DNA from: Candidatus Saccharimonadia bacterium
Lineage (GTDB): Bacteria; Patescibacteriota; Saccharimonadia; CAILAD01; CAZGYV01
NCBI GenBank assembly: GCA_041906885.1
Contig: JAYRII010000012.1
Coordinates: 94,955-158,954, forward strand
Length of the DNA: 64,000 nt
Direction of reading: 5' to 3'
The translations under genes were made by a program, and so were the position numbers. Shown piece by piece: positions 3,901 to 57,842 of this stretch (position 1 is the first letter of the stretch; every line of letters begins with the position of its first letter). The notes beneath the pieces were generated by a model, which had not been told where the DNA came from, ran no database searches, and saw nothing but the letters and a program-made list of their open reading frames with translations.

Positions 3901-4674
3901 ATGAGGGTGAGAACTGAGACAAGCAATGAAATATCGGCGAGTGAGCTGCAAGAGCTAGTATTGCTGCTCTTGCATCATGCAAAAAGCCCATTGGTGGCTG
4001 TTAGTGGCTTTATCGATATGGCTAAGAGCGAACCAGCTGATCGTTCCACCGCTCACCCAGCTATCAATCAGAAGCTTCTACGTTACGCCAGGCTGAGTGC
4101 CGAGAGGGCTTTGACTCTGATCGATACCATTTCGACAATTACATCTCTGAGTATCAATGGCAATAGTGCTGTCATTATGCCAACCAGACTAGATCTGGCT
4201 CTTAAAAATTCTTTACTAAATTATCAAGCCAGCCAGGATCAAAAGCAGCTTATCTGTAGCATTCGTCGCAGCTATAAATTGCCCATGGTACTGGCAAATC
4301 AACCCAAACTCGAGGAGTCACTGCGACTCTTGGCACACATTTTTTTAAGCGCCGGCCCGAGTAAGCAGGAAAAACTCAATATCGGCTTTCGGACTCGAGG
4401 TGATTATCTGGTGATGCGCTTATCTTCGGCTGCACTAGCGAGTGCTCTGGCTGATGTCAGAAAAGTTTTTTATAAGAAGATTCAACTAACTCGACTAGCC
4501 ACCGAGCATAATTGCGAAGCGGTTGTGCAAGCCTACATCATCAGGCGCAATATTGAGCTGGCTGGCGGGTTCGTCAAGGTTGAAGCCAAGCGGGGCGCAC
4601 TGACCAGTATGTATATTCATTTGCCACTTAGTCGACAATTACAACTCGAGGGTTGCTTGGAGAGGCAGGAGTAG
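3901..4674 (+). CDS. HisKA/DHp-like domain protein, possible degenerate sensor kinase lacking recognisable ATPase boxes
   Basis: H-box-like LLHHAKSPLVAVSGF; no N/G1/G2 boxes seen; immediately followed by a receiver gene. Confidence 0.35.
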   Translation: MRVRTETSNEISASELQELVLLLLHHAKSPLVAVSGFIDMAKSEPADRSTAHPAINQKLLRYARLSAERALTLIDTISTITSLSINGNSAVIMPTRLDLALKNSLLNYQASQDQKQLICSIRRSYKLPMVLANQPKLEESLRLLAHIFLSAGPSKQEKLNIGFRTRGDYLVMRLSSAALASALADVRKVFYKKIQLTRLATEHNCEAVVQAYIIRRNIELAGGFVKVEAKRGALTSMYIHLPLSRQLQLEGCLERQE

Positions 4675-4723
4675 GGTAGGCTTAAGTTAGTACCGAGGAA
4701 TATTTTAGAAGGAGGGTAATTGG

Positions 4724-5110
4724 TTGGCTCAACCCACCATATTGTTAGTCGAGGACGACGAGACCTTGGCCGCGATGTATCAGCTCAAGTTGGAAGCAGC
4801 CGGCTATAAGGCTGACGTGGTGCATTCTGGAGCGGCTTGTTTGGCCTATATTGATCGCAAGAAACCCAGCTTGATTTTGTTGGATATACTTTTGCCGAAG
4901 CTAAACGGCTTTCAGGTCTTAAAAGAGCTACGCAAAATCAAATCTATGGCTCAAACGCCAGTCATCATCCTGACCAACTTGGTCGAGGCCGATGTCAGTA
5001 TGAGCCAAGAGCTGGCCAGTAGTCTCGGTGTAGTTGATTATTTGGTTAAGTCTAAGGTGACACCAAATGAGGTGGTGGCCAGGGTCAACTTGGCAATTGG
5101 TGGCAAGTAA
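4724..5110 (+). CDS. single-domain response regulator receiver (CheY-like)
   Basis: LLVEDDE...LILLDILLP...K pattern typical of REC domains. Confidence 0.8.
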   Translation: MAQPTILLVEDDETLAAMYQLKLEAAGYKADVVHSGAACLAYIDRKKPSLILLDILLPKLNGFQVLKELRKIKSMAQTPVIILTNLVEADVSMSQELASSLGVVDYLVKSKVTPNEVVARVNLAIGGK

Positions 5111-5139
5111 ATGATGATAATAGCAACAGGCAGCTAGGC

Positions 5140-5856
5140 GTGAGAGCTAGGAATTATAGGGCGCGTGGCTTGGTCATTAAGAGGCACAATCTGGGTGAGG
5201 CCGACCGGATATTGACGGTTTTTACGAGTGAGCTGGGCAAGTTGCGGGTAGTCGCTAAAGGTGTGCGTCGAGGTCGTAGCAAGCTGGCTGGCCACCTAGA
5301 GCCGTTTGTCGAGACAGAGCTTCAGTTGGCGCGTGGTCGCAACCTGGATGTGGTGACAGGCGCGCGCGGGCAGCGCTACTACTTAATCAATCAAGATAGC
5401 CTGGAGACTATCACGACGGCTTATTTGTGCCTAGAGGTTATCGACCGACTGATGGCTGACGAGCAGGCGAGCGAGCCTGTCTACGCGCTGGCCGGTGAAG
5501 TCTTAGCGAGGCTAGAGAGCGGTGTAAATTACCTGCTAGCGCGGCACTATTTCTTCGTCAAGTTTTTATACTTGACTGGCCAACAGCCTAATATGGAAGC
5601 GCGTGATGGGGCAAGTGAATATTTCTTGAATTTTGATGCCGGAGTAATCAGCGGCCAGGTCCAAGAGGGACAAGAGGCCAGGCCGATAGCTAGAGAGATT
5701 ATTAAGCTGTGGCGACTCATCTACGGTAATGATCTAGCCCAGATCAGCCGCTTGGGTGGGGTGGAGCGACATTTGGCGGCCGCCCAGGAGCTGATTGAGC
5801 TCTTCTATGATTACCACCTGCATACTCGCTTCAGGTCGGAGAAGATATTGGGGTAG
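5140..5856 (+). CDS. recO: DNA repair protein RecO
   Basis: N-terminal OB-fold signature GLVIKRHNLGEADRILTVFT, length 238 aa. Confidence 0.8.
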   Translation: MRARNYRARGLVIKRHNLGEADRILTVFTSELGKLRVVAKGVRRGRSKLAGHLEPFVETELQLARGRNLDVVTGARGQRYYLINQDSLETITTAYLCLEVIDRLMADEQASEPVYALAGEVLARLESGVNYLLARHYFFVKFLYLTGQQPNMEARDGASEYFLNFDAGVISGQVQEGQEARPIAREIIKLWRLIYGNDLAQISRLGGVERHLAAAQELIELFYDYHLHTRFRSEKILG

Positions 5857-5874
5857 GCTTTTTTAAGTTTTTAA

Positions 5875-5930
5875 CTACGTTTCGTCCTCATTAGGACTCA
5901 TCAGAACGACTATATAATTCGTTGACGTAG
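5875..5930 (-). ncRNA. hammerhead ribozyme, type III topology (open stem III)
   Basis: minus strand reads CUACGUC|AACGA-AUUAUAUAG-UCGUU-CUGAUGA-GUCC-UAAUGA-GGAC-GAA-ACGUAG: complete CUGAUGA and GAA core, GUC cleavage triplet, stem III CUACGU/ACGUAG (6 bp), stem I AACGA/UCGUU, stem II GUCC/GGAC. Confidence 0.8.
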
Positions 5931-5951
5931 CCCGCCCCTAAAAGGGGCGGG
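5931..5951. terminator. strong GC hairpin CCCGCCCC-uaaaa-GGGGCGGG abutting the ribozyme cleavage site; bidirectional hairpin between convergent recO and minus-strand ORF
   Basis: perfect 8-bp G/C stem; no clean U-tract, so probably an RNA 3'-end stabiliser rather than a classic intrinsic terminator. Confidence 0.45.
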
Positions 5952-6013
5952 TGCCACCCTAGATCATCTTGTGACCTCGGGTAGCTGGAGAAGAGAAGAA
6001 AGTCAGTGTGGCA

Positions 6014-6631
6014 TTATTTATGCCACCAGACTACCTCCTCGGGGGAGCCGGTGAACTCTCTCACCTCCTCGCGAACCGAGAAGCTCATTAGCTTCTCGGC
6101 GTGCCCATAGGCCAAGATTTGTGACCGGTTGAAGGCAATATATGCTTTGCCTTCAAAATCAGGTTTGACCGCATAGATAGGCCATTCAAAGCCTTTGTCC
6201 AGGTATTCGGACACGAAGAGCTCTGGGTCGAGCTCTTCTCCTGGGATTTTGGCTACTGATAGCCCCTCCGGGCTATCTTCGAACCACTCGATCCAACCGT
6301 TGCTTGAGTCTCCGAGAGCGAATGGCTTTCCATTCGCTACGGTAAATAGCACCCCTTCGACCCTATCTGTGCCGGTGGGGGTTGCTGCATATTCATGCAG
6401 CAACTCGATAGCCTCCTCCTTCGAGCGCACTATGTACGCATAAGAGTAGTCTTTTCCAAAAGCTACTTCGTTGAATCGGTCGGTTATTACCAGGTATGCC
6501 TGGTCTTCCATCTTCCCTCCAGGGAAGTCGTCCTCCGAGTACTCATTATTCCTCGAAGGTGGGTCATGGTGGCCACTTCTGGAGTGACCTTTCGTTTCCG
6601 CTTTTTTTTGACCCATTCGGACCTGATACAC
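6014..6631 (-). CDS. hypothetical protein (GC-richer than neighbours; His/Lys-rich N-terminus)
   Basis: 205-aa ORF; alternative ATG at 6616 (MGQKK...); no recognisable motif. Confidence 0.5.
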   Translation of the reverse strand: MYQVRMGQKKAETKGHSRSGHHDPPSRNNEYSEDDFPGGKMEDQAYLVITDRFNEVAFGKDYSYAYIVRSKEEAIELLHEYAATPTGTDRVEGVLFTVANGKPFALGDSSNGWIEWFEDSPEGLSVAKIPGEELDPELFVSEYLDKGFEWPIYAVKPDFEGKAYIAFNRSQILAYGHAEKLMSFSVREEVREFTGSPEEVVWWHK

Positions 6632-6963
6632 CTGGCCAGGTTCTTTTTTCTTAACCCGTAGGTGACCTGGTAGGTGGTATCAGAAAACTCAAGGTGCCGA
6701 TCAGGTTTTTAACCCTCACAACGTCATACATATTACCATAAGTGAAATAATATGTCAATAGTTTTGTGCCAGTCTGGAATAGCTCTATGTCTCGACCATA
6801 AAGAAAGTAGTAGATCCCCTGCGCCCTCGAAAAACAGAAAGTCGAGTTAGGAATTTAGTTGATCCAGAAATACAGCTTTGAGCGGGAGCGAGTCTGTATT
6901 TCCAACTAAAATTCTAATGAGACACTTCTAGCTTTTGAGCCCTAGGCGCGAAAGAGGCTTTTG

Positions 6964-6990
6964 CTACTTTTGGCCGTAACCCAAAAGTAG
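6964..6990. other. perfect 10-bp-stem hairpin CTACTTTTGG-ccgtaac-CCAAAAGTAG
   Basis: seen directly in sequence, immediately upstream of repeat array. Confidence 0.6.
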
Positions 6991-6995
6991 AGAAG

Positions 6996-7144
6996 AGATC
7001 CTTCGGCTACGCTCAGGATGACAACGGGGGATATACGAATAGATCCTTCGACTGCGCTCAGGATGACACTTGGTGAGCTCAGGATGACGGGGCGGCTCAG
7101 GATGATGGAGGGTGAGAGATCCTTCGGCTACACTCAGGATGACA
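6996..7144. repeat. direct-repeat array: three 28-bp copies AGATCCTTCG(G/A)CT(A/G)C(G/A)CTCAGGATGACA (6996, 7041, 7117) plus two short copies GCTCAGGATGA(C/T) (7077, 7095)
   Basis: repeats read directly; irregular 45/36/18/22-bp spacing. Confidence 0.7.
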
Positions 7145-7161
7145 GGACGAGAGAATTTAAA

Positions 7162-7190
7162 ATGACAGACCAGATCATTTAAGGTATAAT
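7162..7190 (+). promoter_or_regulatory. sigma70-like promoter ATGACA-N17-TATAAT 10 nt upstream of glyQS ATG (near-leaderless)
   Basis: hexamers and 17-bp spacer seen in sequence. Confidence 0.4.
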
Positions 7191-7200
7191 ATGGCTCAAT

Positions 7201-8574
7201 ATGGCAGAAAATAAACCTGAAAAACAATCTCATATTTCAATGGAAGAGCTAACCAGCTTCGCCAAAAGGCGCGGCTTTGTCTTTCAAGCCAGTGAGCTTT
7301 ATGGCGGCATTGCCGGCTTCTGGGATCTCGGTCCGTATGGGGTCGAGCTGGCCAGTAATATCAAAAAAAGCTGGTGGCGCGAGTTTGTCTATAAAAACCC
7401 TGAAATTATCGGCCTTGATTCGACCATTATTCAAAACCCCAAGCTGTGGCAGGCCAGTGGTCACACCGATACCTTTGTCGATCCGATGATTGATTGTAAG
7501 GCCTGCAAGCACCGTTTTCGAGCAGATCACGTGGCTGGAGTTGACACAAGTGACCTGGCCAAGCTAGACAAGGCTCTAGCAGATAAAGCTTGTCCGAACT
7601 GTGGCAAGACCAAGACTTTCACTCCAGCTCGGACTTTCGGCATGATGTTTAAGACTTACGTCGGCCCGATCGAAGACGAAGCTGCCAAAAGCTATCTGCG
7701 CCCCGAAACGGCCGGGGGAATATTTACTGATTTCGAGCTAGTACGGGAGACGATGCGAGCCAAGCTGCCATTTGGTATCGCTCAGATTGGTAAGGCTTTT
7801 CGCAACGAGATCACGCCTGGAGATTTTATATTTCGAGTGCGTGAATTTGAGCAAATGGAGCTGGAGTACTTTGTCGACCCCAAGGAGGCGAAGAAATGGT
7901 ACGAAGACTGGAAGAAAGCTTGCATGGCTTGGTGTGAGTCGATTGGCCTCTCGAAGGAAAACCTGCAATTCCACGATCACGCTCCAGATGAAAAAGCACA
8001 TTATGCCGATGCCAGCGTCGATATCCAGTATCGCTATCCGTTTGGCTTCAAGGAGCTTTATGGTATCGCTAATCGAACTGACTTTGACCTCAAGGCCCAC
8101 GCCAAAGAGTCAGGCCGCGATTTGAGCTACTTTGATGAAGCCTCGGGCAAGCGTTTCGTGCCTTATGTAATTGAGCCGTCGGTTGGTGCCAGCCGGCTAA
8201 TGCTGGCGCTACTGCTCGACGCTTATGATGAGGAAGAGGTTAGCGGCGAGAAGCGGGTCGTACTACGATTTAAGCCAGAAATAGCTCCGGTCAAAGTAGC
8301 GATATTGCCATTATCAAAGAAGCCCGAGCTATCCAAGCTGGCGCACGAAGTTTATACGACAGTAGCAGGGGAGTACAATGTCGAATATGATGAGACCCAA
8401 TCGATTGGCCGGCGCTATCGCCGCGCCGACGAGATCGGCACACCGTATTGTGTGACAGTTGATTTTGAGAGTCTCGAGGATCAGGCTGTGACCGTGCGTG
8501 AACGTGACTCGATGAAACAAGTACGGATTAAAATCAACCAGCTCAAGGGATATCTTGCAACTAGATTGAACTAG
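7201..8574 (+). CDS. glyQS: glycyl-tRNA synthetase, alpha2 (GlyQS) type
   Basis: class II aaRS motifs, length 457 aa, N-terminal FQASELYGGIAGFWDLGPYG typical of dimeric GlyRS. Confidence 0.9.
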   Translation: MAENKPEKQSHISMEELTSFAKRRGFVFQASELYGGIAGFWDLGPYGVELASNIKKSWWREFVYKNPEIIGLDSTIIQNPKLWQASGHTDTFVDPMIDCKACKHRFRADHVAGVDTSDLAKLDKALADKACPNCGKTKTFTPARTFGMMFKTYVGPIEDEAAKSYLRPETAGGIFTDFELVRETMRAKLPFGIAQIGKAFRNEITPGDFIFRVREFEQMELEYFVDPKEAKKWYEDWKKACMAWCESIGLSKENLQFHDHAPDEKAHYADASVDIQYRYPFGFKELYGIANRTDFDLKAHAKESGRDLSYFDEASGKRFVPYVIEPSVGASRLMLALLLDAYDEEEVSGEKRVVLRFKPEIAPVKVAILPLSKKPELSKLAHEVYTTVAGEYNVEYDETQSIGRRYRRADEIGTPYCVTVDFESLEDQAVTVRERDSMKQVRIKINQLKGYLATRLN

Positions 8575-9064
8575 ACTTTAGATAAACCCCAACGGCGATG
8601 CCAATAGCACAGGCCACACCGCCGATTACTAGTACTTCGAGGCCGCTACGCAGGGGAGAGCGGCCGGTAATCTTGCCTTTGCCAAGCCCCAGTATAAAAA
8701 GCCCGACTAAAGCTAAAATGACACTGACTACCACCGAGATAGAAGGTGGCAAAAGCACAATCGGCGCGATTGGTAGCAATCCAGCCATAAAGTAGGCTAT
8801 AAACATAATTATGCCACCAAATACTGGCCGATCTTTGGCCTGGCCGTGCTTTAGCTCGTTGGTGGTTTGTTCGCTCAAAAATTCGCCAGCCGCCATCGAG
8901 ATACCAACAATACCAGCCAGGACAATAAATTTTGGATCTTGCGTACCGGCGCCAATGCCGGCGATTAGGCCCGTTGTAGACACCAGACTGTCTTCAATGC
9001 CAAAGAATGCACTACGCAAGTAGTCGCCCGACACTCTGTGGCGATGCTGTTTATGTCTACCCAT
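8561..9064 (-). CDS. VIT1/CCC1-family membrane protein (putative Fe/Mn transporter)
   Basis: Gly-rich TM helices GLIAGIGAGTQD...MAAGEFLSE pattern. Confidence 0.5.
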   Translation of the reverse strand: MGRHKQHRHRVSGDYLRSAFFGIEDSLVSTTGLIAGIGAGTQDPKFIVLAGIVGISMAAGEFLSEQTTNELKHGQAKDRPVFGGIIMFIAYFMAGLLPIAPIVLLPPSISVVVSVILALVGLFILGLGKGKITGRSPLRSGLEVLVIGGVACAIGIAVGVYLKSSSI

Positions 9065-13150: not shown

Positions 13151-14176
13151 ATGACAGAAATCACCATAATTTCACAACTGATGCGTATCTTGCTTCTAGC
13201 TTTTTCTAGCTTCTTGCTGGCAATGTGCTTAACACCGGTTTATACCCACTTTGCTTACAAGCATAAGTGGTGGAAGCAGGTGCGTGATACCACTACAACG
13301 GGAGAAAAAGCACCGGTATTTTATAAGCTTCACGCCGCGAAGCACAAACGACATATTCCGACAATGGCCGGGCTTATTATGATAGTGGTGGTCTCAATTA
13401 TTACACTTTTGTTCAACTGGAGTCGATCGCAAACCTACTTGCCGCTTTTCGGGTTGGTTTGCGCTGGAGCAGTTGGCTTGATCGATGACATTATAAATAT
13501 TAGGGGTGATGGTAAAGGGGTGGCGGGTATGCGTGGTAAGATAAAATTTGGTTTGATTCTGACAATCGCGGTCGTTGGCGCTTTGTATTTCTACTTCAAG
13601 CTTGGCTATGACTTGCTGCACATTCCGGCGGTCGGCACATTTAGTATTGGCTGGCTTTATATGCCGCTCTTTGTCTTGGTGGTAATATGCACGGCTAATG
13701 CGGTTAATATTACAGACGGTCTCGACGGTTTGTCGGGAGGGCTTTTGGCGACAGCTTTTAGTGCTTTTGCAGTGATTGCTTTTGCTCAGGGTAATTTTGG
13801 TATCGCCACATTTTGTGCCACGGTTGTCGGTGCAGTATTGGCCTATACTTGGTTTAACATTTTTCCGGCTCGGTTTTTCATGGGTGATTCGGGGGCGTTT
13901 GCACTTGGTACGGCATTGGGTGTAATTGCGATGTTGACTGATTCAGCCTTAGTTTTACCGATCATCGGAGCTGTCTTTGTGGCTGAAGCTGGCTCCAGTG
14001 TCTTACAAATAGTCTCCAAAAAACTATTTAATCAAAAAATATTTTTGTCAGCTCCATTACATCATCATCTAGAAGCTAAAGGCTGGCCAGAGACTAAGGT
14101 CACTATGCGTCTGTGGATTATTGGTGCGGCTGTTGGTATCTTGGGTCTGATTATTGGTCTGATTGCACGCGGGTAG
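13151..14176 (+). CDS. mraY: phospho-N-acetylmuramoyl-pentapeptide transferase MraY
   Basis: NITDGLDGL motif, ~10 TM helices. Confidence 0.9.
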   Translation: MTEITIISQLMRILLLAFSSFLLAMCLTPVYTHFAYKHKWWKQVRDTTTTGEKAPVFYKLHAAKHKRHIPTMAGLIMIVVVSIITLLFNWSRSQTYLPLFGLVCAGAVGLIDDIINIRGDGKGVAGMRGKIKFGLILTIAVVGALYFYFKLGYDLLHIPAVGTFSIGWLYMPLFVLVVICTANAVNITDGLDGLSGGLLATAFSAFAVIAFAQGNFGIATFCATVVGAVLAYTWFNIFPARFFMGDSGAFALGTALGVIAMLTDSALVLPIIGAVFVAEAGSSVLQIVSKKLFNQKIFLSAPLHHHLEAKGWPETKVTMRLWIIGAAVGILGLIIGLIARG

Positions 14177-33908: not shown

Positions 33909-33983
33909 TGGTGATCCCACGGGGAGTCGAACCCCGGTTACCAGGATGAGAACCTGGCGTCCTAACCACTAGACGATGGGACC
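33909..33983 (-). tRNA. tRNA-Glu (anticodon CUC), 75 nt with encoded CCA
   Basis: cloverleaf folded by eye: acceptor GGUCCCA/UGGGAUC, D-stem GUCU/GGAC, anticodon stem CCAGG/CCUGG loop UUCUCAU, T-arm CGGGG-UUCGACU-CCCCG. Confidence 0.9.
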
Positions 33984-57755: not shown

Positions 57756-57842
57756 GCCAGAGTGGTGGAATTGGTATACACGCATGACTCAAAATCATGT
57801 GGAGCTTGCTCCTTGTGGGTTCGAGTCCCACCTCTGGTACCA
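57756..57842 (+). tRNA. tRNA-Leu (anticodon CAA), 87 nt with long variable arm and encoded CCA
   Basis: acceptor GCCAGAG/CUCUGGU, anticodon stem CAUGA/UCAUG loop CUCAAAA, variable arm GGAGCUUGCUCC, T-arm GUGGG-UUCGAGU-CCCAC. Confidence 0.9.

Follow-up and report, generated by a model that had tools for sequence, protein, structure and literature searches.

A type III hammerhead ribozyme that probably forms the 3′ end of an exchangeable orphan-gene unit between recO and glyS in a Saccharibacteria clade

A 64,000-nucleotide (nt) stretch of a Candidatus Saccharimonadia genome (contig JAYRII010000012.1; referred to here as the window, to which all positions belong unless a locus is named) contains a type III hammerhead ribozyme on its minus strand, between the convergent recO gene and a minus-strand orphan gene of 165 amino acids (aa), with glyS lying beyond. 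The comparison of this site with its orthologues suggests that the ribozyme probably provides the 3′ end of an expression unit that is small and self-contained and lies antisense between recO and glyS in one clade of Saccharibacteria. Upstream of the ribozyme, the unit comprises a promoter-like site, a structured leader, an open reading frame (ORF) that differs between lineages, and two hairpins, named A and B (Table 1). An earlier note, made from this one sequence, had guessed that self-cleavage would leave the messenger RNA (mRNA) with a hairpin-protected 3′ end, a proposal that is now supported by the comparative data.

Every element of a hammerhead had been reported on the minus strand in the earlier note, and direct reading of the sequence confirmed them all. 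In stem III, CUACGU (5930-5925) pairs with ACGUAG (5880-5875), giving 6 bp, or 7 if G5931.U5874 is counted. Stem I joins AACGA (5923-5919) to UCGUU (5909-5905) in 5 bp and is closed by a 9-nt loop 1, AUUAUAUAG (5918-5910), and stem II joins GUCC (5897-5894) to GGAC (5887-5884) in 4 bp, including G10.1-C11.1, below loop 2, UAAUGA (5893-5888). The conserved core is present as CUGAUGA (5904-5898) and GAA (5883-5881). The cleavage triplet GUC lies at 5926-5924 and conforms to the N-U-H rule, with U5925 paired to A5880 (A15.1-U16.1) and C5924 at position 17; the cut is predicted between 5924 and 5923. Helices I and II are loop-closed and helix III is open, which is the type III topology. The Rfam family Hammerhead_3 (RF00008) matches end to end (5931..5874) at 42.9 bits, with E values of 1.8e-8 in a local search and 5.1e-6 when both strands of the whole window are searched. 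The bare core pattern CTGATGA-N10-20-GAAAC occurs once in the window against 0.13 expected, and no second self-cleaving ribozyme was found in the 64 kb at E<=1, the hammerhead being the sole ribozyme match. Weak Rfam matches that overlap the region (GP20-b, sbcD, Thr_leader and ylbH; E 0.36-8.7) were taken for noise. For the 66-nt segment, the centroid structure is the hammerhead fold. The first nucleotides of loop 1 (AUUA) and loop 2 (UAAU) permit a 4-bp Watson-Crick contact, and the loops of other lineages permit 3-4 bp in shifting registers, in both cases possibly by chance given that the loops are A/U-rich. At the sequence level, the locus holds a genuine type III hammerhead with every feature of the class except the curated Rfam score.

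The identification as a complete type III hammerhead, likewise made in the earlier note, is further supported by orthologous loci. The comparative set was assembled through RecO homologues and spans seven lineages (L132/L133, L147, L134, L135, L136/L137, L138/L139/L007 and L140-L142), in which RecO is 92-60% identical to that of the window and the gene order recO, insert, glyS is always kept. One member, L007, is an uncultured Candidatus Saccharibacteria metagenome-assembled genome (RecO 67% identical) that was the sole close relative in a RecO scan of the genome collection; its contig ends 260 nt past recO. A hammerhead occupies the same position, on the strand opposite recO, in all seven lineages, in decayed form in L138/L139/L007, and the remaining intergenic DNA is largely unalignable across them. 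The core, CUGAUGA plus GAA, is invariant in the seven, and RF00008 scores are 50.6 bits in L140, which is above the cut-off, 46.2 in L132 and 39.9 in L134. In the alignment of six lineages, 98.9% of the stem cells are paired, against 22-45% in slid controls, and four pairs, three in stem III and one in stem I, show compensatory changes, a result matched by 1 of 500 column shuffles. For example, the stem III of the window, CUACGU/ACGUAG, is replaced by UUCGCGU/ACGCGGAA in L136, and its stem I, AACGA/UCGUU, by AGCGG/CCGUU in L140. Stem II never varies among the six aligned sequences. Because of this, and because the set is small, the covariation is supportive but not overwhelming. The minimum-energy fold is the hammerhead for L132, L140 and L135. 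Palindromic-repeat insertions of 57 nt in L135 and 76 nt in L136 are confined to loop 1, and the insert of L135 merely extends stem I.

More distant relatives, in which RecO is 45-49% identical (L143-L146), have a recO-glyS gap of 24-69 nt that contains no hammerhead core, which marks the insert of ~1-1.3 kb as derived within one clade. A scan of Joint Genome Institute (JGI) metagenomes with a lineage-specific hammerhead pattern gave 0 matches. As a separate observation, L143-L146 carry a minus-strand hypothetical gene (133-211 aa, no Pfam family) just downstream of glyS or cofD, between glyS and a VIT1-family gene, and no hammerhead core is found there.

Conservation extends upstream from the ribozyme to a strong hairpin and, further out, to the control elements of the gene. 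The 8-bp pure G/C hairpin that had been described directly before the ribozyme, here hairpin B, was verified by reading the sequence. Each of the six loci that carry a gene has a strong hairpin, which ends 0-3 nt ahead of stem III and 7-10 nt ahead of the cut. Its position is constant and its sequence and length vary: the window and L135 have stems of 8 bp, L132, L147, L134 and L136 have stems of 17-18 bp, and L140 has an unrelated 12-bp stem, CCCCUUCCCUCG/CGAGGGAGGGG. The conserved 3′ flank extends as far as hairpin A, and the stop codon of the L132 gene lies inside the 5′ arm of this hairpin. The predicted 5′ cleavage product, taken from the stop codon to C17, contains hairpin B in six of six gene-bearing loci and hairpin A in five, with folding energies of -25 to -55 kcal/mol and z-scores of -2.5 to -7.4; that of the window would end in ...GGGGCGGG-CUACGUC>p, with hairpin B as its last structure. 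An intrinsic terminator, for which a G/C hairpin directly followed by a U-tract was the criterion, was considered and rejected, as hairpin B is followed by CUACGUCAACG and no U-tract. A consensus scan of 5500-7500 found no terminator-like site on the minus strand.

The earlier assignment of the ribozyme to the 3′ untranslated region (UTR) of the minus-strand gene is strengthened by a promoter, leader and Shine-Dalgarno-ATG arrangement that is conserved ahead of every cassette, and by a consensus scan that found neither a promoter-like nor a terminator-like site on the minus strand between gene and ribozyme. Two of its details needed correction. The distance between stop codon and ribozyme is 83 nt (6013..5931) rather than 84, and the ORF, first drawn as 6014..6631, begins at the ATG at 6511, which is preceded by GGAGGG and was chosen by gene callers in six near-identical Logan contigs. 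The longer reading of 205 aa, from a GTG at 6631, was rejected because 6512..6631 belongs to a conserved non-coding leader that is common to loci with different genes. The promoter blocks TTGAC and TATGGTAATAT are kept in L132, L136, L140 and L147. These loci also have the conserved blocks of the leader, of which L140 retains both ends without the middle. The leader is ~210 nt long, with counterparts at 6738-6993 in L132, 6603-6875 in L136 and 1490-1705 in L147. RNAalifold, applied to three leader sequences, predicts 56 pairs, 17 of them with compensatory changes. A hairpin at the 3′ end of the leader is predicted to sequester the Shine-Dalgarno sequence by pairing CUUCCC with GGGAAG and covaries to CUUCUC/GAGAAG in L136; a long-range helix (GGGUCA/UGACCC) and a further covarying hairpin are also predicted. 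The leader matched no Rfam family and is a candidate for a new cis-regulatory element. A search for the leader motif in viral contigs gave 17 matches, all attributed to chance since, by BLAST, each shared just the pattern itself.

The gene within this frame is not the same from one lineage to the next. The slot holds minus-strand ORFs of 165 aa in the window, 179 in L147, 302 in L132, 172 in L135, 192 in L136 and 211 in L140, which are mutually unrelated except for the pair from the window and L147 (30-35% identical; the two proteins share both termini and diverge in the middle). All six proteins are acidic (pI 4.05-5.6), and most of the ORFs are richer in GC than their genomes, for example 0.62 against 0.45 in L140 and 0.51 against 0.43 for the window. 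None of the slot proteins falls into a Pfam, PADLOC or PHROG family, even at relaxed thresholds. An exhaustive HMMER search among billions of proteins returned P0122, the protein in the same slot of L147, as the sole relative of the window protein; a match to P0123, a repeat protein of 2901 aa, was regarded as spurious. A word-indexed protein search with the window and L140 proteins recovered only the proteins themselves, and protein-database searches of these two gave no relatives outside the slot. The AlphaFold model of the 165-aa protein, built on a two-sequence alignment, was unusable (predicted local distance difference test, pLDDT, 35.5).

The sharpest case of replacement is provided by L132 and L147, which are 96.7% identical over 3.2 kb that include recO, the ribozyme and both hairpins, and which also agree in glyS (94%) and the leader (91%). 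Their ORFs are unrelated, and the break points lie 6 nt past the ATG and at hairpin A. The replaced spans are 5837-6730 in L132 and 1706-2245 in L147 (locus coordinates), corresponding to 5983-6505 in the window. No integrase, transposase, reverse transcriptase, recombinase or phage gene was found among the genes called within 5 kb on either side at any locus. In the lineage formed by L138, L139 and L007, known from three independent assemblies, the slot contains no gene, and the GUC site is gone from the hammerhead, as are the 5′ strands of stem III and stem I; only the 3′ half of the ribozyme survives, which Rfam no longer detects.

The association between a strong upstream hairpin and the type III topology is also seen outside this clade. 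Hammerheads were collected from viral contigs (loci L012-L131 and L165 onward) with three stem II sequences, GUCC for a first sample and GGCC or GCCC for a second. Their topology was sorted by a simple, crude script, and the 40 nt directly upstream were folded, a minimum free energy of -14 kcal/mol or stronger, an author-set cut-off, being counted as a hairpin. In the first sample, the mean energy was -14.7 kcal/mol for type III, with a hairpin in 14 of 19, and -7.1 for type I, with a hairpin in 3 of 56. The second sample gave -12.7 (18/50) for type III and -6.5 (3/98) for type I (Fisher p=1.7e-7). With the samples pooled, such a hairpin precedes 32 of 69 hammerheads of type III, where it ends 0-3 nt ahead of stem III, and 6 of 154 of type I (Fisher p=7e-14). 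The 40 nt downstream of type III hammerheads fold at a mean of only -3.5 to -4.6 kcal/mol. This dependence on topology fits a 3′-end cap, because the type I ribozyme body stays on the 5′ product and type III cleavage leaves there just one strand of stem III, as a bare tail of 6-7 nt. A folding role, in which the hairpin stacks on helix III, would agree with it as well. In a mechanical ORF census, 18 of 24 hairpin-bearing viral type III hammerheads lay 3′ of a same-strand ORF, a count too noisy to carry weight. No description of the arrangement of upstream hairpin and type III hammerhead was found in the hammerhead literature covered, although a prior description is possible. As an observation in its own right, the viral locus L017 has a type I hammerhead (13753-13783, minus strand) with the same core, stem II and stem I (AACGAAU/AUUCGUU) as the type III ribozyme of the window; it may be related to the latter as a circular permutation, a resemblance that could also be coincidental.

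These features are consistent with a simple order of events. Transcription would start from the promoter-like site (6758-6730, minus strand) and proceed through the leader, the ORF (6511-6014), hairpins A and B and the hammerhead, with no intrinsic terminator on the way. Once transcribed, the hammerhead would fold and cut between C5924 and A5923. The released mRNA would carry a 2′,3′-cyclic phosphate seven nt past the all-G/C hairpin, an end that should resist 3′-to-5′ exonucleases. The RNA downstream of the cut would be uncoupled from the mRNA and begin with a 5′-OH; as recO is convergent with the cassette, this read-through RNA would be antisense to recO. Its decay by an RNase J1-type enzyme can be envisaged by analogy with Gram-positive bacteria, in which RNase J1 degrades the 5′-OH products of glmS and hammerhead ribozymes (Collins et al., 2007, as summarized in PMC7967978). 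It thus appears fairly likely, on the comparative evidence, that a functional hammerhead and the hairpin would together substitute for a terminator by giving the mRNA a hairpin-capped 3′ end, whatever gene is in the slot.

Several observations weigh against this interpretation. The comparative set is small, with seven lineages and six sequences in the covariation count. The earlier note had named the Rfam type III hammerhead model as a check on its proposal; the match to that model is full-length with E=5.1e-6, but its 42.9 bits fall short of the Rfam gathering cut-off of 48.5, which is a curation threshold and not a biochemical feature. The default Rfam scan consequently omits the hammerhead and lists just two tRNAs; in the covariance-model alignment, the lost bits are due to a 6-nt insertion that lengthens loop 1. 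For the sequence of the window, the minimum-energy structure of the 66-nt segment is a competitor 1.3 kcal/mol below the hammerhead fold, and stem III is unformed in the fold predicted for a 154-nt context. L134 lacks both gene and promoter and still has a hammerhead that is almost complete, its stem I starting with one A.C mismatch at the base, in a contig of very low coverage. The link between gene loss and ribozyme decay is consequently carried mainly by one lineage, in which decay is clear, and is ambiguous in another. Finally, the hairpin could aid folding instead of protecting an end, either through stacking against the open stem III or because it shields the ribozyme from variable upstream sequence.

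Such a folding aid is part of one alternative, in which the ribozyme is active but the downstream product is what matters, either as a recO-antisense RNA that regulates recO or through the insulation of recO. The geometry of the locus fits this: the type III topology keeps the structured ribozyme body on the 3′ product, where the 5′-OH of the antisense RNA would lie buried in the folded stems I and II, recO is convergent, no minus-strand terminator lies between 5875 and 5500, and the ribozyme stays beside recO (19 nt from its stop codon in the window, directly at the stop in L007/L138) as the upstream gene changes. However, in L138/L007 the ribozyme decays where gene and promoter are lost though recO is retained, relatives with recO and without the insert have no hammerhead, and the minus strand inside recO showed no conservation beyond that of the coding sequence. 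Moreover, the enrichment of hairpins at phage type III hammerheads spans many unrelated contexts. A role centred on the downstream RNA is therefore regarded as unlikely.

The unit could instead be the relic of a phage- or plasmid-derived accessory cassette (a ‘moron’), its ribozyme having no present role in the cell or serving to mobilize or exchange the cassette. Hammerheads of prokaryotes are persistently linked to phages and lie beside small ORFs that are not conserved (PMC3088659, PMC6155905), and those with the stem II and core of the window are abundant in viral contigs. The GC content of the cassette above that of the genome, the absence of the insert from more distant relatives and the sharp borders of ORF replacement, which fall at hairpins, point the same way. 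Against this origin, the lack of any gene for mobility or of phage type within 5 kb has already been noted, and the single hammerhead per locus precludes RNA excision or circularization by a ribozyme pair. An invariant core with compensatory changes down to 60% RecO identity also argues for purifying selection and not for neutral persistence, which makes a relic improbable. The sub-threshold Rfam score and the ambiguous minimum-energy fold of the window copy would be compatible with a chance resemblance to the hammerhead consensus, devoid of catalysis. Given the E value of 5.1e-6 for the window, the orthologous position, the invariant core, the covarying stems and the above-threshold score of L140, such a coincidence is barely conceivable. 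The formation of a hairpin-capped mRNA 3′ end remains the preferred explanation. The broader proposal, that a strong hairpin plus a type III hammerhead is a widespread, undescribed 3′-end-forming module replacing the terminator, used both by phages and by a fixed Saccharibacteria ‘expression slot’ with codon-precise orphan exchange, is put forward tentatively and may well not hold.

The coordinates of the unit and of the other features of the window are given in Table 1. Further neighbours of the locus are genes for a response regulator, mraZ, rsmH, ftsL and ftsI. The window is bacterial chromosome and not a known phage; a DNA comparison of 4000-9000 with GenBank phages gave just four short, irrelevant matches. 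DNA of this organism is also present in the sequencing runs SRR31861110, SRR31861096, SRR31861104, SRR30909874 and SRR11913995.

Table 1. Positions of the recO-glyS expression unit and of other features in the window
Feature	Coordinates	Strand	Basis
recO	5140..5856	+	Pfam RecO_N, RecO_C; synteny
Type III hammerhead ribozyme	5875..5930	-	Sequence read directly; RF00008 match; orthologues and covariation
Hairpin B, 8-bp all-G/C, CCCGCCCC UUUUA GGGGCGGG, abutting stem III	5931..5951	-	Sequence; fold
Hairpin A, ~13 bp, loop CAAGA	5953..5985	-	Fold; kept in L132, L147, L135, L136
Cassette ORF, 165 aa, acidic orphan, pI 4.5	6014..6511	-	Gene call; exact copies in Logan contigs
Structured leader (5′ UTR), start approximate, placed from the promoter-like site	6512..6722	-	Conserved blocks; RNAalifold
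Sigma-70-like promoter, TTGACA / 17 nt / TG-extended TAATAT	6730..6758	-	Consensus scan, 10/12 matches
glyS (glycyl-tRNA synthetase)	7201..8574	+	Pfam
tRNA gene	33912-33983	-	Rfam, 62.1 bits
tRNA gene with long variable arm	57756-57839	+	Rfam, 57.8 bits

Two kinds of repeated sequence were encountered around the unit. A dispersed element of ~180 nt, with a perfect 10-bp hairpin (CTACTTTTGG...CCAAAAGTAG), occurs in differing places and orientations in related genomes: at 6818-6996 in the window, 5840-6018 and 7800-7974 in L138, 8462-8641 in L132 and 1272-1450 in L134. It is inverted in L138/L007 relative to the window and has no Rfam match; it could be a small mobile element or a small RNA gene. 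Upstream of glyS, at 6994-7150, there are five tandem-like copies of GCTCAGGATGACA, a sequence found 8 times in the window against 1.3 expected, and the Logan contigs that carry the cassette gene of the window break in this repeat region. Loop 1 of the hammerhead carries insertions of related short palindromic units, GATCCTGA...TCAGGATGACA and TCCGGA...TCCGGAATGACA, in three lineages (L135 ~845-880, L136 ~5870-5935 and the loop-1 region of L138/L007).

The ribozyme itself is ordinary, and the locus extends hammerheads to a Saccharibacteria-like genome. Less ordinary are its chromosomal site, the host group, the conserved frame of leader, hairpin and ribozyme around swappable orphans, and the association of hairpin and type III topology. 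The locus amounts to a clean natural experiment, in which a single ribozyme at a fixed site is combined with a swapped gene, decay in one gene-less lineage and a strong hairpin that always precedes it. Together with the enrichment of hairpins in viral contigs, it offers a testable function, namely a capped mRNA 3′ end without a terminator. If true, such a 3′-end module would assign a definite task in the cell to the hammerheads of prokaryotes and would point to a new mechanism of hairpin-bordered cassette exchange. The structured leader without an Rfam family and the precise replacement of ORFs are both worth study in themselves.

Hammerheads are known by the hundreds to thousands from bacteria and phages, often near integrases or in prophages, with flanking genes that are not constant (Perreault, 2011, PMC3088659). 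The proteins encoded beside them are small and not conserved, and what these hammerheads do is still regarded as an open question (de la Pena, 2017, PMC6155905). The ribozyme described here resembles these type III hammerheads in its canonical core, three helices and open stem III, in a stem II (GUCC/GGAC) identical to that of many phage copies, and in its intergenic position beside a small non-conserved ORF without an assigned function, the setting that both papers describe for prokaryotes (PMC3088659, PMC6155905). Unlike typical prokaryotic hammerheads, it is present once, at a chromosomal position that is fixed and flanked by housekeeping genes, with no recognizable prophage and no flanking pair. 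A full-text literature search for Saccharibacteria and the candidate phyla radiation yielded no report of a hammerhead. A viroid-like or retrozyme element, which would have a pair of flanking ribozymes, was discounted, there being one hammerhead in the 64 kb and one per related locus. An integron cassette was likewise set aside, as no recombinase was called within 5 kb and R boxes are absent by eye, a judgement made with no formal attC model.

For the exchange of genes, the nearest analogue is found in T4-type phages, in which PeSLs, modules of a promoter plus a stem-loop, border orphan ORFs that have been inserted, deleted or replaced from one nearly identical genome to another (Arbiol et al., 2010, PMC2839356). 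In both cases ORFs are replaced within regulatory flanks that are themselves conserved, as seen in L132 and L147. PeSLs are, however, repeated many times per phage genome and recombine together (PMC2839356), whereas here there is one slot per chromosome and the 3′ module contains a ribozyme. Dispersed copies, the mark of a PeSL, are missing: the window has a single leader and a single 3′ module, as does each related locus, and membership in that class was rejected. With the glmS/RNase J1 pathway, the proposed scheme shares a self-cleaved bacterial mRNA that yields a downstream fragment with a 5′-OH, for which the same fate is suggested (Collins et al., 2007, as summarized in PMC7967978). The glmS ribozyme lies in a 5′ UTR, needs glucosamine-6-phosphate (GlcN6P) and destroys the coding part, whereas in the present unit the coding part is the upstream fragment and would be spared.

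What the unit shares with intrinsic terminators is a terminal G/C-rich hairpin that would define and protect the mRNA 3′ end. The unit differs in that the end is proposed to arise from RNA cleavage past the hairpin and not from the release of polymerase. In mammals, a discontinuous hammerhead, reportedly described by Martick et al. in 2008 in the 3′ UTRs of CLEC2 genes, is said to lower expression by removing the poly(A) tail. Both that ribozyme and the present one are located in an mRNA 3′ UTR, where cleavage removes the normal downstream end; unlike in CLEC2, a hairpin precedes the cut here, and the end left by cleavage would, on the present proposal, be a stable one. In the MALAT1 and MEN-beta transcripts, RNase P cleaves upstream of a tRNA-like element and leaves a protective triple helix. 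Although these RNAs are eukaryotic, are processed in trans by a protein-RNA enzyme and rely on a different protective structure, they are like the proposed product of the recO-glyS unit in that the 3′ end is made by cleavage and the protective structure lies directly upstream of the cut.

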